Source: an uncultured Pseudomonadales bacterium (lineage in GTDB: Bacteria; Patescibacteriota; Microgenomatia; UBA1400; PJMF01). From it: DNA of 64,000 nucleotides. Shown one piece after another: positions 14,319-33,938 of this stretch. The position numbers and the translations under genes were made by a program. The DNA lies in the NCBI GenBank assembly GCA_964511345.1, contig CAZEEV010000002.1:66770-130769 (forward strand), in the 5' to 3' direction. Below the pieces are notes generated by a model, which saw nothing but the letters and a program-made list of their open reading frames with translations, ran no database searches and was not told where the DNA came from. Position 1 is the stretch's first letter. The number at the start of each line of letters is the position of its first letter.

Positions 14319-15896
14319 TTAATTTGATATAGCAATTAACGACATTTTCATTGCAGAAACATCTTGTTGAATATTTTGATCAATAATTAAGTCCTGTTCT
14401 ATCTTTTTAATAGCATGAATTACACTACTATGATCCCTACCGGAAAACCATTGCCCGATTTCCTCCAGAGGAATCTGCAACTCATTTCTTAGTAGATACA
14501 TAGCAATATGTCTAGCTTTCACTAATTCTTTACTACGTCTTTTTCCTCTAACAGCGCTCTGTTTTATACGATAATGATTGGCAACGGTTTTAATAATGTC
14601 TTGAGGTTTCGCTCTAATAATTTTTTGTTGATTTTGTCTAACTTCAGTTTGTAGGATTTTGTCAATTAAAGCAGAGTCGATGTTTAGATTCTGTAGTTCT
14701 ACTGCTGAACGAATTTTTTTAATAATCCCTTCAATACGACGAGCGCTATCAACTTGAGAGGCGATTTTTTGAGCCAATTCAATAGGAATATCAAGCTTAT
14801 TAGCCTGAGCTTTTAATAATAAAATAGCAGTGCGCAATTCAAAGGTTGGTTGTTGAATGTCAATCATGAGTCCAGCCTCAAAACGAGACCTTAGCCGGTC
14901 TTCTAAGAGACTTATCTCTTGCGGTGGTCTATCCGAAGTCATAATAATCTGTGAGTTGATAGCAATCAGAGCATTAAAAGTGTGAAAAAATTCTTCTTGC
15001 ACAGAATTTTTACCAGCAATAAATTGAATGTCGTCTAAAAGTAGGAGATTGGTTTTGCGATATTTGTTTTTTAATTGTAGAGTGTTGTGGGTTTTAATTG
15101 CCTTAACGATTTCATTGGTGAACTGTTCTCCAGAGGCATAAATAATTTCCGCTTCCGGGTTATTTTGTAGCATGTGGTGAGCAACCGCATGAATTAAATG
15201 GGTTTTACCAACTCCCACTCCACCATAGAGAAAAAGCGGATTGTAGCTAGTCCCTGGATTGTTAGCGACGGCTGTGGCTGCGGCGTGAGCCATTTCATTA
15301 CTCGACGAGACTGCAAAGCTTTCAAAAGTATAATCTTGTCTCAAACCGATCTGCGAGGCCCTAACCTTCAAACGATCAAAAGTATTGTTATTAATATTTG
15401 CTTGAGAAAACAACTCTTCCACTGTCGGCGAGGGACTATTTTGATTATTTCCAGGAAAACTTTTACCAAAAGCAAGATTATTTCTAGACTCATTGAAATT
15501 GCGTCCATTAATTTCTTTGTAAATCGATTCTTCTTTTTCTGTTTTTTCTGAGAAATAATCTATTTGTACTGAAGGTGATTTTTTATTGGCTTGTCTTAAA
15601 TCAGTGACAATAAACTCTATTTCAAGTGGTTTATTAATGTATTTTTCCAAAGCAGTTTTAATTTGCGAGTAAAGATTGGATTTGAGATTGGTTACATGGA
15701 AGGCAGTCATACAACTAATAGTGGCGATGGCTTTTTGATCATCCTCAATTTTAATAGAAGTGAGTGGACTAGGCACAATCCAAGTATTAAAAAAAGCCGG
15801 GCTAAGACTGGCCTCCAAATCAACCTTGGCCATTTGCCAGACTTGTTTTACTGTTTCTAAATCATAGATTTGTTCAGACATATCGTCTTTCTTCAA
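14319..15896 (-). CDS. dnaA: Chromosomal replication initiator DnaA
   Basis: Walker A 'GGVGVGKTHL', Walker B 'LLLLDDIQFIAG', and the C-terminal DNA-binding helix 'ELVKARHIAMYLLRNELQIPLEEIGQWFSGRDHSSVIHA'. Confidence 0.9.
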   Translation of the reverse strand: MKKDDMSEQIYDLETVKQVWQMAKVDLEASLSPAFFNTWIVPSPLTSIKIEDDQKAIATISCMTAFHVTNLKSNLYSQIKTALEKYINKPLEIEFIVTDLRQANKKSPSVQIDYFSEKTEKEESIYKEINGRNFNESRNNLAFGKSFPGNNQNSPSPTVEELFSQANINNNTFDRLKVRASQIGLRQDYTFESFAVSSSNEMAHAAATAVANNPGTSYNPLFLYGGVGVGKTHLIHAVAHHMLQNNPEAEIIYASGEQFTNEIVKAIKTHNTLQLKNKYRKTNLLLLDDIQFIAGKNSVQEEFFHTFNALIAINSQIIMTSDRPPQEISLLEDRLRSRFEAGLMIDIQQPTFELRTAILLLKAQANKLDIPIELAQKIASQVDSARRIEGIIKKIRSAVELQNLNIDSALIDKILQTEVRQNQQKIIRAKPQDIIKTVANHYRIKQSAVRGKRRSKELVKARHIAMYLLRNELQIPLEEIGQWFSGRDHSSVIHAIKKIEQDLIIDQNIQQDVSAMKMSLIAISN

Positions 15897-18146: not shown

Positions 18147-19517
18147 TTATAATTTGTTTGAAGTGTCTTGACTTTCTTCCGTAGTTGCTTGCTCTGGAAC
18201 TTGTTCAAACTGACTCTGTAAAGGAGCAATTTCTTCTGTAAAATCATTCTGTTCTTGAATTGGAGCTAGTCCTGGATTAGGTTCTGAAGTTGGCACTGGC
18301 GCTGATTCCAACTCTCGTTTCGCCTCCGATGTCGCCTCCGACGTCGTCGGTTCTGGAACAAGATTTGAATTTAAAGTCAAATTTACATCAGGAGACTGAC
18401 TTGGTTCTAAAGTTGTATTTAGAATCGACTCAGTAGTTGGTTCAGCAATTGGTTTGATGGTTGGCGTTGGTTCTAAAACAAGCTCAGGAGCTGGAACTTG
18501 ATTTATTGTTGTGTCTGGCACAGCTTCTAATATTGTAGCCTGAGTAGAATCAGCGGTGAAGTTTGGTGTTAAAACTGGCGCAGATTCTGGCGCAACTGTT
18601 AATTCTGGAATGGAATTTTGTTCCGAGTTCATCTCTGGAGCGATGATTGGACTACTATTAATAGTTGGGTCAGCATCAATAATTTGGTTGGCGTCAGTAG
18701 TTCGGTTAATATCAATATTACTATTAGGAATAGTGGATTCAATGTGGGCAACAATGGGTTCGGTGCTAGTAACAGTGGAACTCGGAGCTTCGCCGGTGAG
18801 CATTTCTTGAGGTGTTGGGTTTTGCATAATTTTTTCTCCAAAACTCGCCCTAACTAGGGAAGTCGTGTAATTTTCATTATTGCTGATTTCTTGTCCCTCA
18901 GCAGCTTCGGGATTGTAATTGATATAAAAATTTTGAATGATTTCTTGAGTGTTTAATTGTCTAGTGTAAAGTCCAAGACGATTAAATTGAGAGATTAGAT
19001 GATCTCGGCGAGGTTCTAGCAAATTGGCGGCTTTTTCCAAAATAATACTTTTTTCAATAGTATTGATGTCAAAAGTAGTTTTTCCAGGCAAAACATTAGT
19101 AGGGGTAATTAAACCCATCTCGGCTGGACTGGCGGGAATTGTAACGTAAAAACGTTTTTCCAAAACATTTCTTTCTTTAATTAAAGTAGCAACAAAATCA
19201 CGATATTGTTTAATAAGATTGGCTTTTCTATCCGAGCTGGCTTTTTGTATTTGCTCATCAAGCAAGCGCAGGTATTTAGTAACGTCTTTGGTTTGTGATT
19301 GAATGCTAATTTGGATAGGGTAGTTAAGAGAATTAAGTAAAGACCCATAGGTAAACATAATGGCGTCTTGTTCTTGCTCAGCTAGAAGACTGAAATTCAT
19401 TGTGCCGACCTGGAGGATAATGGAGGCGGTACCATCTTTGAGAAGAATAGTATTATTAACAATGTCGTAAACATCAAGAAATTCTTGCGTAGTGGAACTA
19501 ATGACTTTTTCGCTCAT
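18147..19517 (-). CDS. T4SS-associated protein: N-terminal ~230-aa domain resembling the VirB4/TrbE N-terminal domain, followed by a ~225-aa disordered Pro/Thr/Ser/Glu-rich tail
   Basis: 'ILLKDGTASIILQVGTMNFSLLAEQEQDAIMF' parallels the CagE/TrbE/VirB4 N-domain pattern. The C-terminal half is low complexity (PEPTTSE…). It lies 6 nt upstream of virB4. Confidence 0.35.
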   Translation of the reverse strand: MSEKVISSTTQEFLDVYDIVNNTILLKDGTASIILQVGTMNFSLLAEQEQDAIMFTYGSLLNSLNYPIQISIQSQTKDVTKYLRLLDEQIQKASSDRKANLIKQYRDFVATLIKERNVLEKRFYVTIPASPAEMGLITPTNVLPGKTTFDINTIEKSIILEKAANLLEPRRDHLISQFNRLGLYTRQLNTQEIIQNFYINYNPEAAEGQEISNNENYTTSLVRASFGEKIMQNPTPQEMLTGEAPSSTVTSTEPIVAHIESTIPNSNIDINRTTDANQIIDADPTINSSPIIAPEMNSEQNSIPELTVAPESAPVLTPNFTADSTQATILEAVPDTTINQVPAPELVLEPTPTIKPIAEPTTESILNTTLEPSQSPDVNLTLNSNLVPEPTTSEATSEAKRELESAPVPTSEPNPGLAPIQEQNDFTEEIAPLQSQFEQVPEQATTEESQDTSNKL

Positions 19518-19542: not shown

Positions 19543-20400
19543 TTAGGGCTTGATTACAAGGGGATTGATTTGCTGACCATTCAACTCGACTGTCATTTTT
19601 GGAAAAACGAGATCATCTTTTTCTACAGTGATTTGGTAACTGCCGTTTTCCAAGGGTCGATCGGTCAAGAATTTGCCATCCTGATCACTTTTCAAAACTC
19701 TTACTGTTTGCTGATTTTGATCCTTAATTTCTACGATGGCATGACCAATTTTGTGTTCACTTTTATCAATGATGGTGCCGGCAATTTGGTTTGGCAATAG
19801 CTTTTGTTCTTCACTAATTTCTTTAGGTAGTTTGAGCTTGCGCACTCTAGTTTGTAAATTGGGCTTTTCTTGTTCTGAGTTTTCTATGCTAATTTCACTT
19901 TGTTGCACTTCTACGTTATCAAACTCGTTTAGAACGGCATTGATTTTTTGATTTTCAGCTAAGTCAAATTGATCCTGACTTTTTTCACTGTCGGGAATAC
20001 TTTTGAGATATTCAAAAATACGCTGTTTGCGTGCAGGATTTAAATTAATATCTGGAGCGAAAAAATCTTCGCGAGTAGAGGTGATTTTATAATTAAAAAA
20101 ATCTGGAATTTTATTTGATTTTTTCCAGAAAAACTTAGTAGGTTTATAAATATTTTGGAAAAAAGTTTTGATCCAATGGTCAAGTGGTCTTTCTTCAACT
20201 GGCACAAAAGCAATTGCTGCTCCAAGTCCAACAATAGTAAAAACCAGTGGCCATTTTACGATGCCAATGAGATTTGTTTTATAAATAATGAAAGCCAAGA
20301 CAGCTGCTACGGCTAATTCGGCAAACTGCTTAAGAGTCATGCTTCCTACGAGATGAAACTTATAGTTGGTGATATCTTGCGGAATAGGGTGTTGTTTCAT
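19543..20400 (-). CDS. PrgI/VirB3-like T4SS membrane protein with C-terminal carboxypeptidase-regulatory-like beta domain
   Basis: N-terminus 'YKFHLVGSMTLKQFAELAVAAVLAFII…WPLVFTIVGLGAAIAFVPVEERPLDHWIKTFF' follows the PrgI-family two-TM pattern. The C-terminus 'GTIIDKSEHKIGHAIVEIKDQNQQTVRVLKSDQDGKFLTD…GSYQITV' resembles a CarboxypepD_reg fold. Confidence 0.5.
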   Translation of the reverse strand: MKQHPIPQDITNYKFHLVGSMTLKQFAELAVAAVLAFIIYKTNLIGIVKWPLVFTIVGLGAAIAFVPVEERPLDHWIKTFFQNIYKPTKFFWKKSNKIPDFFNYKITSTREDFFAPDINLNPARKQRIFEYLKSIPDSEKSQDQFDLAENQKINAVLNEFDNVEVQQSEISIENSEQEKPNLQTRVRKLKLPKEISEEQKLLPNQIAGTIIDKSEHKIGHAIVEIKDQNQQTVRVLKSDQDGKFLTDRPLENGSYQITVEKDDLVFPKMTVELNGQQINPLVIKP

Positions 20401-20448: not shown

Positions 20449-21462
20449 TTATTTCTCTATAGCACTGGCTACGGCCGGAGTGATGATTTCTGCCTGAATA
20501 TTGATGCCGGCAGAATTAGTTAGCTTGCCGCGAAATTTGTAAAATGGATAAGCGATCTTTAGATTGCTGTCGTAGCGATATTCAATTTCTACTGAGTACA
20601 AATTAGCCTCATCAATCCAATTCAAATCAATGACCTCAACTATTTCACTGCTAGCATTGATAATAGAAGCATTGCCTTTCTTTATGTTGTTTATCGCTTG
20701 ATTAATAGATATAGCAGGCAATTGTTTGGAAATTTGAAATTCTTGGAAAAAATCACGGAAATTAACTCTTTTTAAATTGTAAAAATTATCAACTCGACAA
20801 AAAAATGGATAATCATTTTGGTTTTCATAAAAAACTTTATAACCATCAAGCTCATAAGTCAGAGGAATTTGTGCAAAAGTAGCTCTATTTTCATCAATTA
20901 TATTTTGCTCAAAGCCAGAATCTAAATAAATAATACTGTCTTTTTGTACCACTAAAGGCACTAATATATTGTATTTGCTATAAAAATTTTGGCAAACTTC
21001 GATAGCTGAGTCAGTGATAATTTTTAAATTGTTTTCACCTTCATTTTTTACTCCACTATTAAAAGTATAATAGTGTTCGTAATTATTTTTTGCTAAAGCA
21101 TGATTCTCACCAAGCCAATAATTTTCTATATTAGAATCTTTGTTTAGTTGATATTCAATAATTAATTTATTAGCCAACTCATCTGCCAAACCAGATGTAT
21201 TTTGAGCTTGGTAAATATTAAAAAATTCTGGAACAGCAATTTCCGTACCGCTAAAATCAATTTTTTTAAAAGTGCTTTGAGTGTTGTCATAATTATTAAC
21301 AACAAAGTCATTAGCAATGATTTTCTCTTCGACGGGTGTGATAATTTTGAAAATAACTGATAGAAGTAAAGCTCCTAGTATTAAAATCCCCAAAAATAAA
21401 AGAAAATTATTTTTTTTCTTTACGGGTTGATTTGTTTTAGGTGTGCTGTTGTTCATAATCAA
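20449..21462 (-). CDS. Bitopic membrane protein (N-terminal TM + ~290-aa external domain); VirB8/TcpC-like candidate
   Basis: Single N-terminal TM 'FLLFLGILILGALLLSVIF'. Size and position (between the hydrolase-like giant and the PrgI-like gene) match TcpC/Orf13-type VirB8 analogs. No sequence motif to confirm. Confidence 0.3.
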   Translation of the reverse strand: MIMNNSTPKTNQPVKKKNNFLLFLGILILGALLLSVIFKIITPVEEKIIANDFVVNNYDNTQSTFKKIDFSGTEIAVPEFFNIYQAQNTSGLADELANKLIIEYQLNKDSNIENYWLGENHALAKNNYEHYYTFNSGVKNEGENNLKIITDSAIEVCQNFYSKYNILVPLVVQKDSIIYLDSGFEQNIIDENRATFAQIPLTYELDGYKVFYENQNDYPFFCRVDNFYNLKRVNFRDFFQEFQISKQLPAISINQAINNIKKGNASIINASSEIVEVIDLNWIDEANLYSVEIEYRYDSNLKIAYPFYKFRGKLTNSAGINIQAEIITPAVASAIEK

Positions 21463-21468
21463 AAATAA

Positions 21469-24400
21469 TTAATAACAAGTCGTCACGCCCTGTCCATATT
21501 TTGGAGGATAGTTGCCGCCATCATCTTCTGGTACAAGGGTTTCAATAATAGAAAGTCCTGGATTATTAGCCATATAGAAAACTCCGTTATGAGCAGCTCC
21601 GTAATGCAGATGAACTCCATCTGAAAACCCCTTATTGCCCATTAAGCCAATCATAAACCCAGCCTCGACCTGCATACATTGATTCGGAGTGCTCAAACTA
21701 GGGTTCGGTTCTTCGAAGTGTAAAAACTGTATCTTTTGCGTTGTGCCGCCATTTTCGAAACTTAACACATAAAAACATCCCTCGCTTCCTCCACATCCCC
21801 CAAAACATAGATTTCCATCAAATGGAACATAAACTGGAGGACCGTAAAGTGCAGCCTCACCGCAACCGTTACAACCAATATCATAAGCATCCATAAAACT
21901 TAGGCCCGGTGGTTTGGAATGAGAATAATCACCATAAGGCATTTGAGATATGTGACCAGTAGCTGGCCAACACCCTGCGTCGCCTCCGCATTCACCCAAA
22001 CAAACCCTAGCGGCCGTAATGACGTTATCTGTGCCTGCCATGAAAGAATTTTGATAATAAAAATTTACCTCAATAGTGTTAAGAATAGCAGTGTTGTTGT
22101 AGTTACTACTCAGATCATCCAGGGTGTAAGTAAAAGTTAGGCTTTCTCCAGCTGGAATAATGATAAATTCGCCACCTCCAGTTTGAAAACTTGCTTCTGC
22201 AGCATCGGCATCAGTTTCTTCCTCATTTCCTGGCGCGTAACTGAGAAGGGGAGATATTTTTAGAGGCTCGCTGCTAAGCCCAACTTGTTCTTTGATGAGA
22301 TTTTGAAAATAATCGAAACCCAACTCTTTACTGCTGTCTATGCTGGGCATGGCTTGTCCGCTTTCTTCCCAACCTTTAGAACTTTGACCAAATTTAATTT
22401 GATCTTTAATATTGCTAATCTGTAAAGAAAAATCTTCTTTTGGTTTAATGGTGACGGTATATTCGATGGAAAGCGGAAATGAAGGTGAAGTACACTTAGC
22501 ACCTTCATTTTCTAAACCAATACAGCCTTTGGTGATTTTAGCTGTCTTTTCAATCGAAGCATACTTGGAGGTTTTTTCAATTGAATTGGTAATTTCTGAT
22601 TCACTAATTGGAAAATCCGTCAAAAAAGCTGAATTAAGACTGGCTTGTTGAAGAATAAAAAACAAAGCCGTGGTGCCAAAAGCAGCAGCTACTGCTTGGC
22701 TGGCAGTAACCATAGCTGAAGATGCAAATTGACTAAAAAAACCTCCGTTAGTTGGTGTTGTTTGAGAGATCACTTTGCTTTGGTTTTGTAAAGTTGCCTG
22801 ACCTCCAACGGGGGTCTGTGTGATTGTGGCTCCGCTGGCTCCACCAATAGTGTGAGTTGCCTTGCCAGCTCCCCAAATAGCATTTTTAGCACCACCACCC
22901 CCTCCGAAAATATTACGGAAAAACAAGACAGCTGGTAAAGCTAAAATTAGCCATGGTAGCATAGCTGCCAGCGCAGCAAAAATGGCACCTAGTACCAGGA
23001 TTGGCCAATTTTTTTTGACCCACTCTAGAACTTTTTCTAAACCCATTTCTATCAACTGTTCTTTGAGTTTTTTAATGATAGGCGCAGCAGCCTCTGCTGC
23101 TTTCAAAGCTTGACCCCAACCACCAGCTGCATCCAAAGCCATATAGAGGCCCTGGCTCAATGCTTTAGTGGCGAGTTTTTTACCTTGCTGACCAAGAGCA
23201 CTGTCCATCAAGCCAGTGCCTTGATAATTTCCTTGTGGATTGAAGGCTTGCTGCATGAAACCGCCACCATTAGCGTCAAAAGCACCCTCGCCAAAATTCT
23301 CTGCCATCTGCAGCATGTAGAGATCCATGGGATTGATCTGCGGGGCAATCTGATCTTGGAAAGTAACAATGTCGTATGTTTCATAGGTGACGCCAGGATT
23401 GTAGAACTCAAAGTAAATTTTGAGAGTGCTTTGTTGTTCGGCGCCAGATAATTTGCTTAATTCTTGGGTCAAAAATTTTTCTAATAGAGCCGCTTGCTGG
23501 CTTTGCCACTCTTGCATTTCTTGACTGCTTGCTCCGACTCTGCCATATAACTCATTGGTAATTTGTCCACCACCATAAGTCAAATTAAGAATGCCTAGGT
23601 TACGTAATTGAGCAAGTTTTTGTGGATCTTTTTGGATTTCTGCTAGTAATTTCTGAGCCTCTTCTGGAGTATATTTTTCAAGAGCGATTTCTTGACGAAC
23701 CTCTAGCGACCAAAGAGCTCGCTTACGTTTCCAATAGAAAATAATTAGATTGGCAAGTTCTTCTTTGTGAGCATCAAAAGCAGCTTTGTCTAGACTATTA
23801 CCAAAAATGTTAACAAATCTGTTGTAATCAAAATTTTTTGGATCGGAAATTAAAAATTCTGGCGGAAGGCCTTGCTGAATAAAAACTTCAATCAGCGGGC
23901 GCACATTGTCTATAACCAATTTTATTCTAGAATTGTCTTGATAACCAGTAATTTCTGCGATTTTTTTGGAAAAAACCTCATCTAGGTATTGTTCGTTGCC
24001 AACGACATTGAGTTCTGATTCAATCGCTTTGACAAAGTTTGGGTCAACTTTGCTTTCTTCGATCATTTGTTGAGCTGTTTCACTGTTTAAGTTTTCGTCT
24101 TTAGATTTTTCATTTTCTCGTAGCTTCTGCTCGCCATATTTAGCGATGTCGCGCACCGCGCTATTGAGCAAATTCAGGCCATAGACATCCATTAATAAGC
24201 CAAAAGCTGCCTGATTACTAAAATTAATTCTTTGTGATGGATCACTGATTAATTTATCCAGGGAAAATTGTCCTGTGAGGAGCAAATTTTCTACCTGTGA
24301 AAAAGCCCGATCCATTAATTTTTGTCTGATAGCTAATGGCAATTGGTCGAAGGTGACAACTGTACCAGGTGGCAAACCAATTTTTGCCAGCGAAGCCTCA

Positions 24401-25188
24401 TTAAAATATTTGCTTAAAGCTTGATTAATAGTGATAATCGAAAGCGATTGAAGATAAAGTCTGGATTGAGGATCGAGCTCAGCGATTTTGAGAGGGGCTT
24501 TGTCGTCTGGAGGCTTTTGATCTTTATTTCTTTGGGTTTCTTGTTTTTTATGGTCTTGATCTTGCTGTTTTTTATCTTTATCTGTTTGTGGTATAGGTAA
24601 ACCAAAACCTCCACCTCCATCACCGCTAGAACTAACTTCATCTTGTTTTTCTTCCTCAATTTTTAGTTCTTCAGAACCAATACTTGGTTTGAGAATTAGA
24701 TAAATTAACTTAATTCTATCAACGATTCTTCTTGAATAATCAAAGTATTCAATTTTTTGCAATTCTTCTACGGTAATTTTTTCACTGGCTGGATTGACAC
24801 CAATGAGTGTAAATGTACTACCTAATTTATCCAATTCTTGTCGCTGGACTGAATCCAAAGAAATGTTTTTACTACTCAGTGAAGTGCGGATTTGCTCGAT
24901 AAAATTAACTAGATCAGAAAGAAATAAGTATGGAACTTTACCTCTTGGCGGAGCAACGCCATCTAAAATGTCTTGAGCAGTGCTTAAATCAAACTCTCCT
25001 CCATAGCTAAAACCCTCAATGGCAAATTCACCCTTAACTTTTTTGTCACCAGCTGATTCGGCGTAAAAATTAGTAATCCAATTGGCACTTTTCTGCAAAA
25101 TTTCATTGATTTGTACAGCACTAAGACTATCGACGCCAGCTAATTTTTTTAGCTCAATTCGAGTATTTTGATTAATGTCTTCTGGCAT
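21469..25188 (-). CDS. 1239-aa membrane protein with Gly-rich TM region and C-terminal Cys-rich M23-peptidase-like domain (candidate T4SS cell-wall hydrolase, VirB1/TcpG/PrgK analog)
   Basis: C-terminus '…MDAYDIG…GPPVYVPFDGNL…GFMIGLMGNKGFSDGVHLHYGAAHNGVFYMANNPGLSI' parallels the M23 motifs (compare '[31 protein letters not shown]' in the LysM-M23 gene at 50527). Mid-protein TM helices are present. First gene of the minus-strand operon. Confidence 0.45.
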   Translation of the reverse strand: MPEDINQNTRIELKKLAGVDSLSAVQINEILQKSANWITNFYAESAGDKKVKGEFAIEGFSYGGEFDLSTAQDILDGVAPPRGKVPYLFLSDLVNFIEQIRTSLSSKNISLDSVQRQELDKLGSTFTLIGVNPASEKITVEELQKIEYFDYSRRIVDRIKLIYLILKPSIGSEELKIEEEKQDEVSSSGDGGGGFGLPIPQTDKDKKQQDQDHKKQETQRNKDQKPPDDKAPLKIAELDPQSRLYLQSLSIITINQALSKYFNEASLAKIGLPPGTVVTFDQLPLAIRQKLMDRAFSQVENLLLTGQFSLDKLISDPSQRINFSNQAAFGLLMDVYGLNLLNSAVRDIAKYGEQKLRENEKSKDENLNSETAQQMIEESKVDPNFVKAIESELNVVGNEQYLDEVFSKKIAEITGYQDNSRIKLVIDNVRPLIEVFIQQGLPPEFLISDPKNFDYNRFVNIFGNSLDKAAFDAHKEELANLIIFYWKRKRALWSLEVRQEIALEKYTPEEAQKLLAEIQKDPQKLAQLRNLGILNLTYGGGQITNELYGRVGASSQEMQEWQSQQAALLEKFLTQELSKLSGAEQQSTLKIYFEFYNPGVTYETYDIVTFQDQIAPQINPMDLYMLQMAENFGEGAFDANGGGFMQQAFNPQGNYQGTGLMDSALGQQGKKLATKALSQGLYMALDAAGGWGQALKAAEAAAPIIKKLKEQLIEMGLEKVLEWVKKNWPILVLGAIFAALAAMLPWLILALPAVLFFRNIFGGGGGAKNAIWGAGKATHTIGGASGATITQTPVGGQATLQNQSKVISQTTPTNGGFFSQFASSAMVTASQAVAAAFGTTALFFILQQASLNSAFLTDFPISESEITNSIEKTSKYASIEKTAKITKGCIGLENEGAKCTSPSFPLSIEYTVTIKPKEDFSLQISNIKDQIKFGQSSKGWEESGQAMPSIDSSKELGFDYFQNLIKEQVGLSSEPLKISPLLSYAPGNEEETDADAAEASFQTGGGEFIIIPAGESLTFTYTLDDLSSNYNNTAILNTIEVNFYYQNSFMAGTDNVITAARVCLGECGGDAGCWPATGHISQMPYGDYSHSKPPGLSFMDAYDIGCNGCGEAALYGPPVYVPFDGNLCFGGCGGSEGCFYVLSFENGGTTQKIQFLHFEEPNPSLSTPNQCMQVEAGFMIGLMGNKGFSDGVHLHYGAAHNGVFYMANNPGLSIIETLVPEDDGGNYPPKYGQGVTTCY

Positions 25189-25249
25189 TGATTGACTTTA
25201 TTATAACTTGGCAATTAATTAGTTAAAAGCTCAATAGGATTTTAATTTA

Positions 25250-28200
25250 TTGCTCTTGGCTTTTGCTAATATTTTGCATAAAATAGTAGCTATGGCAGGT
25301 GAATTTGTTAAAGATAGTCTTGAAAATTTGATTAATTCTATATCAGTAAAATCGTCTGGTTCTTTTGATGATATCAGATATGGAAATTTAGAACCAAGTA
25401 AAGATTCTTTGACAAAGTTAACTGATAAAGATAGAAATGTTGTAGATATTATAAAAAACACTGAGCTAATTGGAATATTCAAGAAAATAAATGCTCTGGA
25501 CAACGTAATTGACGCTTTTCAAAAACAAACTACGGCTGAAGGAATTGTCAATAATCTCTTTGACATAATAAGCGATCTAAACACAGACCTCTTAATGGCG
25601 GATGAAGCCTCTCCTGAGTACCAAAATATTTTGCAATCTTTGGCAGTGGCTTTTTACATGTACGAACAAGTTTTATACCCAGTAGTCAAAGAGGTTGTGG
25701 AGAATAATGTATCCACCAATGACGAAGAGCAATCCACTAGTGAGTGGATTGCTGACAAAACAAGTGAAATCGAAGATTTAAAAATTAGGATCGAAACACA
25801 ACTCTTTTTAGAAGGTATTTCTAAAACAGAAAGACATAGCAAAGATAAATTTATAGAATCTGAGTTTAATAATGGAATAAAAAATATATTAATAGATTTG
25901 GAAAAAAGAAAAAGAAGCTTGTCAGGTGACGCGCAAGAATTGGACAATTTTAAAATTTTTATTTCTGCCGAAAGAAAAAAATTTTTCACTGAATGGAATG
26001 TGTCACCTGACGAAAATGAAGAGACTTTAAATGTTTCAAAGATGACCCTCCGCGAAATTGCTGATTACGTATTGAGAAAAGAATTGCCTTTTTGGACTGG
26101 CGAACATGATAACTGGACAGATGAAAATGATAGAAAAGTTGTTGATGCTCTCATTCAAAGATTATGGAAGGATAATCATAAAATTGTTGGTTTAACCAAT
26201 GATTTTATTCCTGATCCATCAAATGAAAAAGTTCCAGATCCAAAAGAAAATGGACTTAGATTTAGTGATCTTGAATTTAGGGAAATAGTTAGCGACCTAC
26301 AAATTCTTGGGCTGTTTGGAATAATGAATGTTAAAGGTAAAGAGAGAAAAGATGATGGCGCTGCTGAGGGTTTGTTACCAGAATTAGAAGCTTGTCTTTC
26401 TAAATTACAAATGAATAATAAAGAATTATTGAATTTAACAACCTTTGCTCATCCAAGAACGGGTATGATTTTATATGAGTTTCTTAGGAGGATGAAAGAT
26501 CAGGGAGCTCTAAGAAAAGGAGAAATTCCAAAATTAAAACGAGGAGAAGTACCAACTGGTTTTGGTCGAGCTCCTATGAACGACAGGTTGGTTATGAGAA
26601 ATGGGCAAAAAGTTTTGCTTTTTGGAGACAGATTTATCAAAGAACTGAAAGAAAATGGTGAAGGTATGGATGATAAATTTTATGAGGGTACCCCTCTTGA
26701 GAGTGGAGATGTTTTAATTTTGGATTATTCTGGAACAGAAGTTGATCCTGAAACTAGAATGCCAGACGGCAAAATAAGAAAACCAGATGGTTCTGAGTGG
26801 AAGGAAATAAACGACAGAGTTGTAAAGAGAGATAACAAAGATACATTGCTAGTAGGAGATAGGCTGGTCAAAATAGTTAATGGTAAGGGTGTTGAGATTG
26901 GCAAAAAATGGTACGATTACGAACCTAAAGATACAACAGATATGCCTCTTTATGAATTTGACGAACGCTTCTGTTATGAAACTTTGGCTGCTGACTCTGG
27001 AAAAGCAAGGCTGAGGCTTTATGCCGCCGATCTAGCCTCAAAACTAGAGGATCAAAGATTGGAAATCAAAGCCGCTGAAATAGCAGGAGAAGAGCCTGAT
27101 CAGAGCAGAATTCATTTTAAAGAGTTAATTGGTTATCAGTTGCCCGATCCAAACGACAAACAATTTGGTGAAAGAGATGTTGAAAGACTAAAGATGTATT
27201 CTAGGTATCTGTTCTTTTCTTTTCCATTTTTAACAAATATCTTAGCTATGAGACAAGAGAGAACGTGCACGCCTGCTCATGGCTTTGCCAATAAAGACAT
27301 TCAATTCACCTGGATATTTGACATACTTGGTTTTATTGTTCATAAATCTCAAAGATATGGCAACTCTGACACTGCTTTTTACTACCTATTGAAGTTTTTT
27401 CCACCACTTCAAGAGGGGCACTATGGTGCTGGAGGTGATGTTAGAAGGTTGAACCAAATTAGAGATCTAATAATAAAGTATGATAAGATTTTCGACGATA
27501 GAGCTGGCGAAAGTTTGTTTCCAAAACTCCCTTACGGATCCTCATATTTTCATACAGCTTTGAGCATGTTGGCAATGGCTCCTGGAGAGCACACCAGATT
27601 AATGGGAAAAGCTAAATTAGCTGATGGTCGTATATTAGAAGGAACACAAGAAAAGCCAGTATTGCTGGCTCTAGGAGGTGAAGAGAAAAAAAATGAGAAA
27701 TTTAAAAGTCCTTATAACTTTTCAAATATTTATACCTCTATTAGAGCGTGGGATAAATTTATAACTGATATAGCTAAAGATCTTCCTCCCAAATTAAACA
27801 TACAAGACATTGCTGGGGGAGGTGGTAAAGAAAAATCTTTAATTAGTCAAAGATATGGCGATGATGTTGGTCAAGCAAAAATGAGCAGTACTAAGACTTT
27901 AGAAAAAGATAAAGATCCTAATTTAGCCGATTTTGATCATTTGACTATGTCAGCAGTATTCATGTGGGATACTGTAAAGAGATTGTTTCGTCAATTTCAA
28001 TCAAATAGTGTAGAAGTGAGAAAAAATCTTTATAAAGAAATGGAAAAAGGATTTATAGAAACAGCATCTAGAGGAGGGTTGTCGGAGGGATCGGCTGCAA
28101 CAGTTTTAAAATATGTTTTAGCACGGATGTCTAGCCCTGATAAAAATGGTAAATTTTATGCTAAAGATAGGTCATTCGCAGGAATGAATCCGTGTTTAGA

Positions 28201-28519
28201 TGCACTTGAACCGACTGTAAAAAGTATAAATGCTCAACGAGTCTTTGAATACGTAGAAGCTCTTTGGAACTATCAACACTCTGATGTCAATGGCAATGTA
28301 GTAAAACTTTTCCCTTTTAAATTGGCTAATGCTGGAAGTCTTGGGTCAGGCATATTAAATAGACCTCTTATTAATGTAAGACAGGCTCTAAATGCAGATC
28401 CAGATATTACAAAATATCAAGGCTATCTTCTTGGCTACGAAGAAATTAATGGTAAGAGAAGGCGTGTTGAACTGCCTGAGCCTATAAAAAGAATTAATCT
28501 AGAAAAACACGACGACTAG
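25250..28519 (+). CDS. Large hypothetical soluble protein (1089 aa), no recognisable motif, no P-loop, no TM; possibly starts at the internal ATG near 25292 ('MAGEF')
   Basis: Long intact ORF divergently transcribed from the T4SS operon. I could not recognise any catalytic motif. Confidence 0.5.
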   Translation: MLLAFANILHKIVAMAGEFVKDSLENLINSISVKSSGSFDDIRYGNLEPSKDSLTKLTDKDRNVVDIIKNTELIGIFKKINALDNVIDAFQKQTTAEGIVNNLFDIISDLNTDLLMADEASPEYQNILQSLAVAFYMYEQVLYPVVKEVVENNVSTNDEEQSTSEWIADKTSEIEDLKIRIETQLFLEGISKTERHSKDKFIESEFNNGIKNILIDLEKRKRSLSGDAQELDNFKIFISAERKKFFTEWNVSPDENEETLNVSKMTLREIADYVLRKELPFWTGEHDNWTDENDRKVVDALIQRLWKDNHKIVGLTNDFIPDPSNEKVPDPKENGLRFSDLEFREIVSDLQILGLFGIMNVKGKERKDDGAAEGLLPELEACLSKLQMNNKELLNLTTFAHPRTGMILYEFLRRMKDQGALRKGEIPKLKRGEVPTGFGRAPMNDRLVMRNGQKVLLFGDRFIKELKENGEGMDDKFYEGTPLESGDVLILDYSGTEVDPETRMPDGKIRKPDGSEWKEINDRVVKRDNKDTLLVGDRLVKIVNGKGVEIGKKWYDYEPKDTTDMPLYEFDERFCYETLAADSGKARLRLYAADLASKLEDQRLEIKAAEIAGEEPDQSRIHFKELIGYQLPDPNDKQFGERDVERLKMYSRYLFFSFPFLTNILAMRQERTCTPAHGFANKDIQFTWIFDILGFIVHKSQRYGNSDTAFYYLLKFFPPLQEGHYGAGGDVRRLNQIRDLIIKYDKIFDDRAGESLFPKLPYGSSYFHTALSMLAMAPGEHTRLMGKAKLADGRILEGTQEKPVLLALGGEEKKNEKFKSPYNFSNIYTSIRAWDKFITDIAKDLPPKLNIQDIAGGGGKEKSLISQRYGDDVGQAKMSSTKTLEKDKDPNLADFDHLTMSAVFMWDTVKRLFRQFQSNSVEVRKNLYKEMEKGFIETASRGGLSEGSAATVLKYVLARMSSPDKNGKFYAKDRSFAGMNPCLDALEPTVKSINAQRVFEYVEALWNYQHSDVNGNVVKLFPFKLANAGSLGSGILNRPLINVRQALNADPDITKYQGYLLGYEEINGKRRRVELPEPIKRINLEKHDD

Positions 28520-28520
28520 T

Positions 28521-30203
28521 TTATGATTTTTCTTTAGGTGGGCTAGTTCCTCCATTTTTATTGACATATTTTCCTATCATGGCTCCAAGATCTTCTGCTT
28601 CAAAACCTCTTCCTTCTAGCACTTTATTTACCTGCACCCTTATGTTCTTTCCTCTTTCAAATCCGCTAGAAAGTCCACCTTGAGTATCTTCAGTTGCTTT
28701 GCCAGTAACACCGCCATATGACTTAATTATTTTATTATTATCATCTCTTCGATCATATCCTCCAAAGAAGGCACCCACCCTCTCTCTTAAGGTAGCATTT
28801 TTAAAGTCTTTTCCATAGGCCGCTCCAGCTCTAATTCCTCCAACTAAACCCTCTACTCCAGACGTTATAGCTGGCGCAGCTATTGTGCTTTCTTTGATTC
28901 TACCTACTGCATCTTTAGCTAACTGTCCAAACACTCCATCTTCGACACCCATGGCTTTTTTGGCCTGTTGTAAAATTTCTGGAATCACTAACAATATGCC
29001 AATACCAAGAATGACAGGAATAATTTCTCCTTGTCCCTGACCAACTAAGAATGGAGGCATAAAACCTCCGCCAAAACTGCTGCTGATTTCTCCAGTGCCC
29101 ATCATGGCGCGCATGGGGGCAGTTAGCATTCTTTGTACCAAAATACACAGTAACACTATTGGCCAGAGGATCAGATTGCCGGCTAGATTTTTAATCCATT
29201 TAACAAAGGAGTTTTTACCAGGAAAAGCTCCAAGCATTAAAATAATAGGTGAGAAAATAATTTGAATTAAAACTGACACATAGCTTTTAACTAACTCAAA
29301 GAAAATCTTGAAGGTAGCAAAAAGAATTGCTAAGCCAACAATCATGGTAGCAACCAAGCTAGATAGCCAGGTAAGAGCCTGACCTACAAAACTAATATTC
29401 AGAGCATCATCCATAAAAGATTTAATAGCCATTTGCGTCCCGCTTGTGCCACTAAAAATCAAACCAATTAAGCCAAAGATGTTGCGGGTAATAATGTCCG
29501 AGCCTTCATTAAAATACCCAGCAACGACATACATAATTACATACATGAGATCGATCATGAAACCAGCAATGGCGTAAGAAAAAGTTACTGCTAACATGGC
29601 AACAATAACACTTGGAATAGCTTGCTGAGCGGTAATGGCTGCCTGGCCAACCTTGGTTCTAAACATAATCATAAAACCAATAATCAAGAAGATAACGACA
29701 AAAAATAAATAGGCTAAATTACGAAAGGCTTTCCAAGTTTCTAGAATTGGATCCAGAGCGGAAAAACCAAGACCCTGGGCTTGAGCTTCTGGAACAATTT
29801 TGGCAGATTCCATCAAATCGGCAACATAAGTACGGGCGCTGGCAGGTGGAGTGTAAAGTGCAACGATACCACTATTAATATCTCCTAAGACGCCATAACC
29901 AATTTCTTTTTCCAAAATCTTTCTGTCTGATTCAGAAAGATCAGCGCTTTGTGGGATGGATGACATGCCGATAGTGTGTAAATTAATATTAGTGATGATA
30001 TTAGAAAAGCCCTCAGCATCAAACTTTTCTTTATCAGCGCTACTGCTACCAAAAGATTGGACGCTTTTAGCCGTTGAATCGTTAGTGAAAATTCCTCTCA
30101 ACCAATCGCCAATAGATGCTTGAGCTGGCTTAGCTGACATCAAGAAACAGGAAAAGACAAAGAAAACAATTAACAATAGGCGAGAGGTTTTTATCTGCGT
30201 CAT
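28521..30203 (-). CDS. Polytopic membrane protein, VirB6/TrbL-like candidate (signal peptide + periplasmic segment + 6-8 TM + hydrophilic tail); track start 30317 probably too early, likely start ATG at 30203 (MTQIKTS…)
   Basis: Signal peptide '…SAKPAQA/SIG', then multiple long hydrophobic helices (for example 'ALTWLSSLVATMIVGLAILFATFKIFFELV'). This is the VirB6-like topology. Confidence 0.4.
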   Translation of the reverse strand: MTQIKTSRLLLIVFFVFSCFLMSAKPAQASIGDWLRGIFTNDSTAKSVQSFGSSSADKEKFDAEGFSNIITNINLHTIGMSSIPQSADLSESDRKILEKEIGYGVLGDINSGIVALYTPPASARTYVADLMESAKIVPEAQAQGLGFSALDPILETWKAFRNLAYLFFVVIFLIIGFMIMFRTKVGQAAITAQQAIPSVIVAMLAVTFSYAIAGFMIDLMYVIMYVVAGYFNEGSDIITRNIFGLIGLIFSGTSGTQMAIKSFMDDALNISFVGQALTWLSSLVATMIVGLAILFATFKIFFELVKSYVSVLIQIIFSPIILMLGAFPGKNSFVKWIKNLAGNLILWPIVLLCILVQRMLTAPMRAMMGTGEISSSFGGGFMPPFLVGQGQGEIIPVILGIGILLVIPEILQQAKKAMGVEDGVFGQLAKDAVGRIKESTIAAPAITSGVEGLVGGIRAGAAYGKDFKNATLRERVGAFFGGYDRRDDNNKIIKSYGGVTGKATEDTQGGLSSGFERGKNIRVQVNKVLEGRGFEAEDLGAMIGKYVNKNGGTSPPKEKS

Positions 30204-30301: not shown

Positions 30302-31105
30302 ATGATCGATCAAGCACAAACTGATAAATTCAAGAACATTTTAGAGCTTAGTCAAAATATTTTAGTCATTTTTCCAGAAAGCAAAGATCTTGATTTGTTT
30401 TTAGCCAGTTATTGTTTTTATGCTTTTTTGAACACTAAAAAAGGCGTGCGCTTGTTAACTCCAAAGTTAATTCAGCCGATTCCTCGTAATTTAACCAATC
30501 TCATCGCTATTAAACAAATCGAAACTGAACTTGGCAAAGAAAATTTAATTGTTAGTTTCCCTTATCAGGAAAATCAAGTTGATAAGGTTTCTTATTATAT
30601 TGGTGAAAATGATAAGCGTTTTTATTTAACCATCAAACCTAAAAAAGGATCCACACCGCTTACTAGTTCTCAGGTGGAATTTTCTTATGCCGGTACTCAG
30701 GCAGACTTATTGATTTTATGTGGAGTAGAAGAGTTAGAGAGTTTACAGCAATTATATTTTGCCTACGAAAACTTATATAAGGGAACTGATAATCATTTGG
30801 TCAGTATCAATGATTTTATTCCCGATTTTGGCAAGCTTAATTTGGATATTTCTCCCAGTAGTTCTTATTGTGAAGCTTTGTTTTATTTACTGCAGGATTT
30901 GGATTCGGAAAGCGAAGAAATATTGTCTCAGAATTATTTGTCCACCTTATTACTTTATGGGATAGAGTTCAAAACCAAAGGTTTGCAATCCCCTGAAACT
31001 AGTATTAGCACATTTTTAGCTGTAGCTTCTTTATTGAAATTGGGAGCGCAACGACTCTTCCAGAGAACCCCTAAAACTAAAGTCCGGCCTCGTTCAACAA
31101 AATAG
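30302..31105 (+). CDS. Degenerate DHH-family (NrnA-like) protein lacking the DHH catalytic residues
   Basis: 'ILELSQNILVIFPESKDLDLFLASYCFYAFL' aligns in register with the NrnA N-terminus (…IILHRHVRPDPDAYGS…), but its His and Asp residues are replaced. 'YAGTQADLLIL' is similar to 'YAGIVGDTGRF'. Confidence 0.3.
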   Translation: MIDQAQTDKFKNILELSQNILVIFPESKDLDLFLASYCFYAFLNTKKGVRLLTPKLIQPIPRNLTNLIAIKQIETELGKENLIVSFPYQENQVDKVSYYIGENDKRFYLTIKPKKGSTPLTSSQVEFSYAGTQADLLILCGVEELESLQQLYFAYENLYKGTDNHLVSINDFIPDFGKLNLDISPSSSYCEALFYLLQDLDSESEEILSQNYLSTLLLYGIEFKTKGLQSPETSISTFLAVASLLKLGAQRLFQRTPKTKVRPRSTK

Positions 31106-33938
31106 CAGTGGCAAGTGCGCCGGGTCTTTGCCATGCTGGGTACTTATTGCCATTGCTTAAACTCTGACAGTTGCTTGAGTTAGCAAAGCAATATTGTTTT
31201 GCTTGGTCAATTAGTTCTTCTTTGGTGGCATCATCGACTTGTTTTTCGTCAAGACTGCTGCGCAGTTCAGAAATTACAGCATCAGTTGGATTAACTTCAC
31301 AATTAAATTCTACGTAATCTACACAGAAAATTAAATCCATGTCAGTGTGGCGCTCATCAATCCAAGCCATAGGGTAAGGATGGTCTTCTGAACTAAACTT
31401 TGAAGGACATTTGCCATTATTGGCCCAGCGAGTGTCTTTATCACAATTTTGGTTACCAGTGCCATTGTAGGCACCAATAGCTGTGACTAATGCCTCATAC
31501 TCAATGTTATTACGATCAAAATTACCGCCAAATTTATCAATCAAATGTTGCATGGCGGCTTTGGCGTCTTCTTTTAAGGAGCCATTCCTAATTTCACCGC
31601 CATCAAAGACCGAACGGGTAGGACTTGATCCAGCTTCATTCCAATGAATGCCAGCTACGATTTCACAAGGAATGCCAGTTTCTTTTTCAGCGTATTCGTA
31701 AGCCTCCATCACTTCCGCAGTCATGCCTGGGGCGATGTCTGCCACAAAATAATCTTTGGCAAATTGTGGAATTTGTGTTGCACTTGGTATATTTTTAATA
31801 TTCTTAAAAGCTTCGCCTGTGCAGGCCGCTAGAGTAGAGCTACCTTGTGGGCGGCCGCTGCAGCGCCCTAAGAACATATCTTCCACCCTGGTACATGAAG
31901 CAATGTAGTTATAGGTTTGGTTGTAAGAGTTACGTAATTTTTGTTGGATTTTGCGTATTAAAAATCCCAGACCAAAGTCTGGAAGTAAGACGTTGTTTTC
32001 TGGTTCTTCTAGGTTAACACCAACAGTGTAATTTTTACAGACACGGACATTTTCTACATATGGCACGCCTTTGGAGTCATATTTGATCACTTCTTCATAG
32101 CGACACTCATCAAGTGGGCTAATAGAATCAGAACCATCAATACCTACTTCAGCATTTTTGATGGTGTAATACTTAGGAATAACTCCTGCCTTATTGTCCA
32201 TGTCCTCAATAACATTAGTGCGAACAGTATTAAAAAACTCTTCTTCATTCCAAAAAATACTCAGAGCTTTGTTAGCATCTTTAATGGCTTCACCTACTGG
32301 TAAAACAAGGTAGGCGTTAACAATGACTTGTTCATCTAATTTTGGTGGATTGCTATCGATTACTAATTGCCAGTTAAAGGCATTTACATCTTGAGAAAGT
32401 AATTGATCAGCGATTTTTTGATTATTTTGATTTTTATAATTGTAATCTTTGATATCTTTAGAAGCCGGAGTGAAAAGATCGCCAGCTTTTTCAAAATTAA
32501 CATCCTCTTGATTGAAAATGTCTTCAATATTGGCACTTGCAGTGGCGCTAACTGTTGAACCAGCATTTGAGTCACTCTCTTCTTCAACGATCCTCAAAGT
32601 AGTGTTTTGACAATTAGGAGCTGTGCCATTGATAACGTCGATTAGAACATTATTAAGAGCATTTTGGTCGCTTCTGCTACATTGCGGATAAGAAGCGGGA
32701 CATTTAATCAGTGAATCACTTGAATATGGAGCTTCTTTGGCTGATTCATAGACTGCAATTCTTTTCTTATCCTGATTTTCAATGTCTAATTGATTTTGCT
32801 CGCTAGATTGCAAAGCCATTTTAACTATTTCTAAGGTGTCTATATTGCCAGCGAGTTTAGATTTGTTAGTACCAAATTCTGGAATTTTAAAAGCAATAAT
32901 AATTGGGGCATGTACATCATCATTCACTTGGGGACTAGACTGCAAAAAATGAAAGTTGTCATTGCTTTCATTTTTGTTTTGCTTTGGAACTAAAACCAAA
33001 AAAGCTAGTCGATATAATGAGTCTAGATCAATACTAACAGCTCTAATAGCTTCTCGAGCTTTGGCAATTTCATCTATACTCGCTGACAAGGCCGGTTGAT
33101 TTTGATTTTCCTCATCGCCACCACTAAATAAATCAGAGCACACCTGAGGATATAATTCTTCCTCACTGGTTTGAGGACGAAGATTTTTGAGCCAATCTAA
33201 TAAAGTTTGACTGTTAAAAGCTACGTTCAATCGATGCTCTTCAGCTGATAAAGTTTCTGACTCACTAATTGCTCGACTATTTCCTGCTGCATCCACGGCA
33301 ATTGGGAAATCAAATTCTTTATCTAATATGCACTTATCATTTGCGACTTGCGCACAAATTTTTGTTATGGCTGCTAAGTTTTGAGTTTTAGCCAAACATT
33401 GCTGATAAGAAGAAAGCAATCTCTGGCTAATTCCTGAAGCATTAAGCATGTATTGATCTCCAACAGTTTGAAAATCAGCGCCAAACATACCTTCAAAAGA
33501 ACTATTTTTCAAAGTTTCAGTTTTTGGCTCTAAACCTCTAAAAAGAGGAATACGTGCCTTGGAAAAATCAACTACATAATCATTTGCGCCACCAAAAATA
33601 GTTGGATTGAGTCCTTGATAAAAACTTTCTTCAGGTGGGACGCTGCTGCTAAAAAATTTATCAATATCACCCCAGATTTTCTTATCAATGACCCATTGCG
33701 CGCCTCCACAGTGAGCCTCGTAACCCTGATCTTTGACCATAGTGGAGAGTAAATCTTCATAAGCTAAGCCCAAGCTTGATGAAGAAATAAACATCGGCAT
33801 AAGAGTGTAGTTGGTGCTCTCATCAGTAACTTGAGTTTCACTACTTTGGGCAAAAACTAAATTTGAAAAATTACAAAAAAACAGCAGATTAGCAAAGAGC
33901 ACGCCGGCAATTATTTTTTTACACAAACGACTTAGCAC
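31077..33938 (-). CDS. 953-aa secreted protein with C-terminal SLT/lysozyme-like domain candidate
   Basis: Signal peptide '…LVFA/QSS'. C-terminus '…IVAGIHWNEAGSSPTRS…AKAAMQHL…AIGAYNGTGNQ' echoes the SLT motifs (E-S…GLMQ…AYNAG). Confidence 0.35.
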   Translation of the reverse strand: MLSRLCKKIIAGVLFANLLFFCNFSNLVFAQSSETQVTDESTNYTLMPMFISSSSLGLAYEDLLSTMVKDQGYEAHCGGAQWVIDKKIWGDIDKFFSSSVPPEESFYQGLNPTIFGGANDYVVDFSKARIPLFRGLEPKTETLKNSSFEGMFGADFQTVGDQYMLNASGISQRLLSSYQQCLAKTQNLAAITKICAQVANDKCILDKEFDFPIAVDAAGNSRAISESETLSAEEHRLNVAFNSQTLLDWLKNLRPQTSEEELYPQVCSDLFSGGDEENQNQPALSASIDEIAKAREAIRAVSIDLDSLYRLAFLVLVPKQNKNESNDNFHFLQSSPQVNDDVHAPIIIAFKIPEFGTNKSKLAGNIDTLEIVKMALQSSEQNQLDIENQDKKRIAVYESAKEAPYSSDSLIKCPASYPQCSRSDQNALNNVLIDVINGTAPNCQNTTLRIVEEESDSNAGSTVSATASANIEDIFNQEDVNFEKAGDLFTPASKDIKDYNYKNQNNQKIADQLLSQDVNAFNWQLVIDSNPPKLDEQVIVNAYLVLPVGEAIKDANKALSIFWNEEEFFNTVRTNVIEDMDNKAGVIPKYYTIKNAEVGIDGSDSISPLDECRYEEVIKYDSKGVPYVENVRVCKNYTVGVNLEEPENNVLLPDFGLGFLIRKIQQKLRNSYNQTYNYIASCTRVEDMFLGRCSGRPQGSSTLAACTGEAFKNIKNIPSATQIPQFAKDYFVADIAPGMTAEVMEAYEYAEKETGIPCEIVAGIHWNEAGSSPTRSVFDGGEIRNGSLKEDAKAAMQHLIDKFGGNFDRNNIEYEALVTAIGAYNGTGNQNCDKDTRWANNGKCPSKFSSEDHPYPMAWIDERHTDMDLIFCVDYVEFNCEVNPTDAVISELRSSLDEKQVDDATKEELIDQAKQYCFANSSNCQSLSNGNKYPAWQRPGALATAILLNEAGL

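Follow-up and report, generated by a model that had tools for sequence, protein, structure and literature searches.

A gene between two T4SS loci

The 64,000-nucleotide stretch of contig CAZEEV010000002.1 analysed here (hereafter the window) was deposited as DNA of an uncultured Pseudomonadales bacterium and is assigned by GTDB to the Patescibacteriota. Between two groups of type IV secretion system (T4SS) genes it carries a long open reading frame (ORF) on the plus strand, at positions 25250-28519, which we call the slot gene. In the window it is the allele that fills a variable slot of a Patescibacteria-type T4SS locus, which lies on the chromosome near oriC. An earlier note on this DNA had presented the ORF as a soluble ORFan of 1089 amino acids (aa), divergent from a T4SS operon and convergent with a VirB6-like gene, and had leaned towards a role as cargo. 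The ORF was confirmed on the sequence, and both orientations are borne out by the coordinates.

Translation from TTG 25250, which has an AGGA 7 nt upstream, gives the 1089-aa product, and translation from ATG 25292 gives 1075 aa. The ATG product is 100% identical to the public gene call (P0001), and this start agrees with the N-termini of homologues (MAGEF or MSGEF). Both starts remain tenable because the 14 codons between them are also conserved in the related locus L004; the length given earlier is that of the TTG product. We annotate the coding sequence as 25292-28519 (plus strand), with TTG 25250 as the alternative, and number residues from the ATG.

On its 5′ side the slot gene is divergent from the M23/VirB1-like gene (21469-25188, minus strand), the first gene of the minus-strand T4SS operon. 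The two are separated by 61 bp if the TTG is used, which matches the divergent control region of ~60 bp proposed before, and by 103 bp if the ATG is used. This intergenic region (25189-25291) is ~93% identical to that of L004. The ~25 nt beside the M23 start (25189-25215) contain a TATAAT box, which precedes the M23 ATG by 12-17 nt. The box is kept in all four loci with a locatable M23 start (the window, L002, L004 and L013), including L013, which has a different slot type. Its distance from the ATG suggests that the T4SS operon transcript is leaderless or has a very short leader. A scan of the sequence for sigma-70 promoters and terminators gave nothing above shuffled sequences.

On its 3′ side the slot gene is convergent with a gene for a polytopic VirB6-like protein (28521-30203, minus strand; 560 aa, or 598 aa from GTG 30317), and the two stop codons are 1 nt apart. 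No terminator-like structure was seen between these stops (28517-28523). The VirB6-like protein has a signal-like N-terminus followed by ~7 transmembrane segments (7-8 overall). It has no Pfam or NCBIfam match and is named for its topology and position only.

The slot protein is hydrophilic and acidic (isoelectric point 5.4). Hydropathy analysis found no transmembrane segment (maximum 19-residue value 1.09), and inspection of the sequence found no signal-like N-terminus and no lipobox. Walker A, HExxH, CxxC and LPXTG motifs were looked for and none was present; the sequence likewise has no relaxase motif, of the HUH or another class, and no relaxase domain in Pfam. The description of a soluble protein with no P-loop, transmembrane segment or relaxase motif therefore stands, and so does the remark that it has no recognisable motif: scans against Pfam, NCBIfam, PHROGs and PADLOC were empty.

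A conserved slot with discrete protein types

We scanned metagenomes with the VirB6-like gene as seed and recovered 57 loci, 36 of which have enough downstream flank to be informative. In all 36, the VirB6-like gene faces a convergent ORF of 230 aa or more, the longest being 1176 aa; the ORF exceeds 600 aa in 31 of the 36, and several are cut by contig ends. Wherever the flank reaches, this ORF is also divergent from the M23/VirB1-like gene. Members of the window's own protein family behave in the same way: on all readable and long enough contigs they point away from the M23 gene and towards the polytopic gene, and the position is the same down to a family member detected at E = 9e-6. The 5.2-kb contig of P0023 is too short to reach the diagnostic flanks and was left out. 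Linkage to the T4SS, which the earlier note had suggested checking by co-occurrence, is strict in all readable loci, and thus no synteny unrelated to the T4SS was found.

The full-length slot proteins of the other loci are hydrophilic, mostly acidic and without signal or transmembrane segment, as in the window. As judged from their sequences, each slot is filled by a single large protein that is cytoplasmic and has no Sec signal, and the types are mutually unrecognisable. By BLAST they fall into 17 clusters. The hidden Markov model (HMM) of the window's family scores in six of the scanned loci, so that this family fills a minority of slots, and iterating the HMM search by hand brought in none of the other slot types. 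Using hhalign, we linked one cluster (L035, L038 and L055) to the family at 99% probability, with two of its three members below the HMM threshold; the remaining clusters stayed below 25%.

Extra genes occur in or beside the slot in two loci, at 7890-8867 (plus strand) and 14027-15220 (minus strand) of L005 and at 14289-15362 (minus strand) of L020. They encode unknown proteins of 325 and 358 aa and an AAA_14/DUF4143 ATPase. The slot region therefore tolerates insertions.

Type and lineage do not go together. Judged by each of the neighbouring genes, no loci are closer to the window than L012 and L014, with identities of 78-79% for the VirB6-like protein, 79-80% for the PrgI/VirB3-like protein, 71-73% for a DHH-like protein, 66% for the M23/VirB1-like protein and 65-67% for a 953-aa secreted protein. 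SpoIID is 85% identical in L014, and the L012 contig ends before this gene. The slot proteins of these two loci (929 and 921 aa) have no similarity to that of the window by BLAST, HMM or hhalign (probability 0.2%). L002, in contrast, is farther from the window (VirB6-like 71%, PrgI/VirB3-like 65%, DHH-like 69%, M23 59% and 953-aa protein 55%), yet it carries the window's slot type at 57% identity. Slots of the window's family also occur where the VirB6-like protein is just 36-39% identical (L023, L029/L030 and L033). Orthologous conservation of the slot gene is thus undetectable in the closest genomes, whereas its neighbours are 55-85% identical.

At the DNA level the slot appears as a hypervariable island (25650-28900) in which identity drops from 65-88% in the flanks to 25-55%. 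Its left edge lies at ~25200 in the comparison with L012 and L014 and at ~25650 in that with L004; the right edge (~28.9 kb) falls inside the 3′ end of the VirB6-like gene. We considered whether the island could be foreign in composition and rejected this because GC content stays at 0.34-0.39 throughout the region. Searching the flanks for direct or inverted repeats gave none beyond chance. Between L012 and L014, which share one slot type, the slot gene has a ratio of nonsynonymous to synonymous substitution rates (dN/dS) of 0.088 at 84% aa identity, and the neighbouring genes have ratios of 0.054-0.145 at 76-91%. Runaway drift of the slot gene was rejected because of the low ratio within a type. 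The pattern that emerges from these comparisons is one of discrete slot types, each under apparent purifying selection, exchanged between lineages by recombination. The route of exchange was likely homologous recombination in the conserved flanks.

Co-variation with the tail of the VirB6-like protein

The part of the VirB6-like gene that lies in the island (28521-28907, minus strand) encodes a C-terminal tail of ~128 aa. The tail follows the last transmembrane segment and is Gly/Lys-rich, Lys-rich at its start, and predicted to be cytoplasmic. It differs between loci in step with the slot type. Among loci whose VirB6-like bodies are near-constant in their similarity to the window (0.79-0.82), similarity of tail and slot to those of the window is 0.44 and 0.55 in L002, 0.33 and 0.41 in L007, 0.18 and 0.21 in L004, 0.07 and 0.07 in L008, and 0.06-0.07 and 0.01 in L012-L014. 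Over 29 loci the partial rank correlation of tail and slot, with the body controlled for, is 0.34 (permutation p = 5e-4). Slot types have been exchanged between lineages along with the adjoining tail of the VirB6-like protein.

Protein family and predicted structure

The term ORFan was an overstatement. A word-indexed protein search returned six proteins, five of them relatives at 31-57% identity, and repeating it with a 42-sequence alignment gave nothing beyond the same six. A profile search of 1.84 billion representatives recovered 46 clusters at 50% identity, mostly of ~840-1390 aa with some shorter fragments, in which window residues ~627-940 are the best-conserved stretch. Mean column identity is 13% over 50 family sequences. 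None of these relatives is annotated: Pfam scans of 42 family members gave isolated chance-level matches only, and the same holds for 25 slot proteins outside the family, in which no domain was found. Across 67 slot proteins there was no HUH, Rep_trans, tyrosine-recombinase, helix-turn-helix, other nucleic-acid-binding or signalling signature.

AlphaFold modelling from the 50-sequence alignment gave a predicted local distance difference test (pLDDT) score of 83.4 and a predicted template modelling score of 0.77, with high confidence from residue ~150 onwards and low confidence for residues 1-80. This model replaces one from six sequences that was unusable (pLDDT 47). In it, the N-terminal half is helical, residues 421-555 form a duplicated beta module, and the C-terminal core is mixed. 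Sequence searches of the PDB with the single protein and the full profile returned only coiled-coil noise in the N-terminal half (dynactin and apolipoprotein), and a core-only profile had no match even at E ≤ 10. With Foldseek, the best E value of the model was 0.2 against the PDB and 0.6 against BFVD, neither significant. Most of the matches were long alignments of low TM score to large, mainly helical proteins (cullin/CAND1 complexes and mTOR), and all were dismissed as noise. The search for remote homologues and structural relatives proposed earlier therefore found no housekeeping fold or domain in these databases, and the window's slot type is best described as an unannotated family with a confidently predicted fold that has no known relative.

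An alignment of the relatives delimits several parts of the protein. The N-terminal module (residues 1 to ~135; 25292-25696, plus strand) is ~80% identical to that of P0005 and P0006, and the remainder of the protein is ~27% identical. The module is missing in P0002 and P0004, replaced in P0003, and present in P0034 and P0008. Mosaicism extends into the slot gene itself, with a shared module of ~135 aa on divergent bodies. A beta-rich insertion (26552-26956, plus strand) is restricted to the window's subclade and contains an internal duplication (residues ~421-479 and 497-555) with the motif NDRxVxR...LLxGDR; its score of 87, compared with 27 ± 5 in shuffles, is significant.

The most conserved part of the family is the core (residues ~627-1075; 27170-28516, plus strand), with near-invariant T660, H663, R688, Y689, G712, E766, G860, K863, R897, G929 and P1008. 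The polar residues that are near-invariant (T660, H663, R688, Y689, E766, K863, R897 and R1067) suggest a binding or catalytic site. The protein ends in a motif of the form (L/I/V)P.P..R.G (28472-28516, plus strand; LPEPIKRIN in the window), of which P1064 and R1067 are near-invariant, followed in the sequences inspected by eye by a hydrophilic tail of ~5-14 residues. Checking the C-terminus for signal-like features, as had been suggested, gave this conserved motif and hydrophilic tail, which by eye match no known signal class.

In combination, the position kept in all loci with readable flanks, the confident AlphaFold model and the dN/dS of 0.088 in a sister type establish that the slot gene is real, selected and more than a chance ORF.

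Genomic context

The minus-strand operon that starts with the M23/VirB1-like gene continues with genes for a 337-aa bitopic protein (20449-21462), a PrgI/VirB3-like protein (19543-20400), a TrsD-like protein (18147-19517) and the VirB4 ATPase (15990-18140). It adjoins dnaA (14319-15896), and dnaN follows (12900-14009), both also on the minus strand. The M23/VirB1-like protein (1239 aa) has a C-terminal M23 peptidase domain and a single transmembrane segment preceded by ~730 residues with no signal peptide. It therefore has a large cytoplasmic N-terminal region (730 aa), which is unusual for a T4SS peptidoglycan hydrolase. The PrgI/VirB3-like protein bears a C-terminal beta-sandwich resembling CarboxypepD_reg (residues 205-262), and orthologues give the same weak match.

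Upstream of the VirB6-like gene lie a weakly DHH-like gene (30302-31105, plus strand), the gene for the 953-aa secreted protein (31077-33938, minus strand) and two tandem genes for VirB2-like pilins (PF18895; 33966-35761, minus strand), followed by SpoIID (35822-37546, plus strand) and VanW (37945-39768, minus strand). The DHH-like protein (267 aa) has a sub-threshold match to the DHH phosphoesterase N-domain and is 45-73% conserved in the related loci examined. Its gene is on the opposite strand to the VirB6-like and 953-aa genes between which it sits, and its 3′ end overlaps that of the 953-aa gene by 29 nt.

A gene for a VirD4-like type IV coupling protein of 714 aa (45517-47661, minus strand; TrwB_AAD_bind at E = 1.2e-12, TraG-D_C above cut-off) is encoded 17 kb from the slot gene and ~6 kb past the end of the T4SS cluster. 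The intervening genes encode a solute-binding protein, CofD, a 156-aa ORF (42844-43314) and a RadA-like protein. The two T4SS loci of the window may need this VirD4-like gene as a third part.

At the far end of the window, a 2391-aa ORF (56801-63976, minus strand) contains four Laminin_G_3 (concanavalin-like) domains, one Gly_rich_2 and one Ig-like domain and is probably a giant surface adhesin. GC content is 0.44-0.46 over 60-64 kb, compared with ~0.37 elsewhere. No tRNA and no Rfam RNA was found in the window. The gene content is that described for Patescibacteria (Candidate Phyla Radiation) chromosomes near oriC (PMC12102498). Contig CAZIBP010000001.1 (L006/L002), titled "uncultured Pseudomonadales bacterium", also carries a Patescibacteria-type T4SS locus beside dnaA, and its Pseudomonadales label is probably wrong.

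Cargo, machine part or specificity determinant

We tentatively favour, at somewhat less than an even chance, the reading in which the slot protein serves the T4SS as cargo or as a specificity factor, varies by type and docks on its cognate VirB6 tail. A replaceable cassette that co-varies with the VirB6 tail is more readily explained by cargo or a specificity factor than by a regulator or an invariant part of the machine. The slot protein would dock type-specifically on the matching tail, and perhaps also on the VirD4-like coupling protein through the (L/I/V)P.P..R.G motif, and would then be translocated by the VirB4-powered machine into or onto a host cell. Alternatively, it could act at the channel, setting what or whom the system acts on. 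In either case the discrete types would mirror the different hosts to which lineages are adapted, or an arms race between bacterium and host.

A narrower version can be proposed, although it is doubtful. In it, slot proteins are substrates that Patescibacterial T4SSs translocate into host bacteria or archaea, and they are selected by the allele-specific cytoplasmic VirB6 tail as well as by a coupling protein. Tail and substrate would be exchanged as one cassette, so that lineages could switch host-directed function by recombination. An effector class is consistent with a cytoplasmic precursor lacking signal and transmembrane segment and with linkage to a T4SS that has a coupling protein. A near-invariant C-terminal motif in a family otherwise 13% identical speaks for the favoured reading of cargo or specificity.

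Several observations weigh against cargo. Pfam recognises no known toxin, enzyme, eukaryote-like or host-like domain in the 67 slot proteins. By eye, the C-terminal motif matches none of the known T4SS signals (Arg-rich VirB/D4, Dot/Icm E-block, BID or XVIPCD), and in the AlphaFold model it is partly packed on the body (pLDDT ~89) and is not a free tail. Since the variable segments of slot and tail abut, linkage by itself could account for their co-variation. Effectors tend to be dispensable and to vary in number, whereas machine subunits behave as seen here, with exactly one large gene at a fixed position in each locus. Other slot types might share the fold of the window's protein. In S. epibionticum, the only genetically studied system, the locus is arranged differently, with no obvious equivalent of the slot. 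The cargo-leaning interpretation of the earlier note is partly supported, being strengthened by T4SS linkage, cassette behaviour and tail co-variation. Its regulator option is not borne out, as the 67 slot proteins have no DNA-binding or signalling domain.

The same facts can be read differently, in line with the structural option of the earlier note: the slot protein would stay in the cytoplasm as a structural or accessory part of the T4SS bound to the VirB6 tail, for instance as a platform, a gate, an assembly factor or a receptor for substrates, and the slot types would be ancient co-adapted variants of one fold. We consider this rather unlikely. The single copy at a fixed position in 36 of 36 informative loci, the divergent pairing with the promoter region of the T4SS operon, purifying selection at the level of the machine genes and the stable contact implied by tail co-variation all suit such a part, as does the lack of a known effector domain in the scanned slot proteins. 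Because the family has a confident fold at 13% column identity, still more divergent members could escape detection. One further cluster (L035/L038/L055) was indeed linked by hhalign, although two of its three members lie below the HMM threshold. All other components of the locus, however, are alignable between the same genomes (50-94%), and the slot gene alone is undetectable in the closest ones. Its incongruent replacement would need diversifying or balancing selection, which is hard to motivate for an internal part. The slot protein is also unmatched by core T4SS component profiles in Pfam and NCBIfam, as are 42 family members, and neither the characterised monoderm T4SSs nor the locus of S. 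epibionticum contain a counterpart of its gene.

Type-specific co-variation of a variable segment in a VirB6-family protein with an adjacent gene is the signature of exclusion pairs in F, SXT/R391 and ICEBs1 (TraG-TraS, TraG-Eex and ConG-YddJ). The tail co-variation seen here and the exchange of discrete types by recombination would thus also fit a determinant of self and non-self (exclusion, kin discrimination or immunity) paired with the VirB6 tail. The exclusion proteins known so far are small, belong to the membrane proteins or lipoproteins and face the incoming machine, whereas the slot protein is of the 1000-aa class (1075 aa), cytoplasmic, and without transmembrane segment or lipobox, and the co-varying tail is itself predicted to be cytoplasmic. 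Because the system has no relaxase it is probably not conjugative, and we regard an exclusion role as improbable. A novel DNA-processing or pilot protein, analogous to a relaxase, or a regulator of the locus seems about equally improbable. In its favour are the near-invariant Y562, Y689, H663, R688 and K863 and the absence of a recognisable relaxase from a locus with VirB4 and, nearby, a VirD4-like protein. Against this, the 67 slot proteins carry no nucleic-acid-binding signature, a pI of 5.4 makes the protein acidic, and an enzyme tied to a fixed oriT or operator would not be expected to give way to unrelated types.

Comparison with known systems

Patescibacterial T4SSs are described as lacking relaxases, as essential for epibiotic growth in S. 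epibionticum and as having no known substrate (PMC12102498, PMC10633639, PMC11665869). Their role has been called completely unknown (PMC11665869), and effectors are only speculated on (PMC10633639). The MPF_FATA-related systems of Patescibacteria (Quinonero-Coronel et al. 2025, PMC12102498; Wang et al. 2023, PMC10633639) share their gene set with the window: VirB4, TrsD-like, PrgI/VirB3, an M23 protein in the VirB1 role, a polytopic VirB6-like protein and tandem VirB2-like pilins. Shared too are the location beside dnaA/dnaN, the lack of a relaxase in the locus and a coupling protein encoded at a distance. In the sections consulted of these two papers, and in the supplement rows on the S. epibionticum locus, the space between the VirB6-like and VirB1-like genes is not described as holding a large soluble protein of variable type. 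The ML1 locus of that species (SEML1_0006-0019) has another arrangement with no obvious slot equivalent.

What appears to be new is a variable cassette for cargo or specificity, linked to a T4SS and built on an orphan protein family; the cargo reading is strengthened but unproven. It offers a concrete candidate for the cargo or specificity factor of a widespread Patescibacteria T4SS, namely the large cytoplasmic protein of a conserved slot, which comes in discrete types that recombine and go with matching variable tails of the channel protein. Such a factor would give a handle on the host range of uncultivated ultrasmall bacteria. If the favoured reading is true, substrate recognition via VirB6 would be a form undescribed for T4SSs; if the protein is structural instead, it would be a new fold-orphan component of monoderm T4SS architecture.

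CagA, encoded on the cag T4SS island of Helicobacter pylori, is a lineage-restricted protein of ~1100-1200 aa with an unusual fold, no Sec signal and strain polymorphism. The slot protein is likewise large, variable, encoded in a T4SS locus, without Sec signal and of unusual predicted fold. Unlike CagA, whose polymorphism is mainly repeat variation in one family, it is replaced by unrelated types. The two have no sequence or fold match (Foldseek against the PDB, which holds CagA, gave nothing significant), and no cagF-like chaperone gene was recognised at the window locus.

Polymorphic toxins and the X-Tfe effectors of Xanthomonas, which carry XVIPCD, resemble the slot proteins in their modular build (in part of the family), conserved C-terminal motif and discrete recombining types. 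The slot proteins differ in that no known toxin domain was found in 67 of them, no XVIPCD-type signal was recognised, and the VirB6-like and M23 genes flank the slot directly with no adjacent immunity gene. Moreover, the variable part is the whole 900-aa body and not a short C-terminal toxin.

Similar in genetic behaviour are the C-terminal extension of VgrG with its cargo in the type VI secretion system (T6SS) and the TraG/ConG segment with its exclusion protein. In both, as in the slot, a variable segment of a subunit co-varies with a neighbouring gene and is exchanged with it as a cassette. VgrG belongs to a T6SS and thus to another secretion system than the T4SS of the window; the exclusion proteins of TraG/ConG are small envelope proteins, whereas the slot protein is cytoplasmic and of 1000 aa. 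Membership of the slot protein in the CagA, VgrG-tail/effector or TraG/ConG-exclusion class is unsupported, and these systems stand as its nearest functional analogies.

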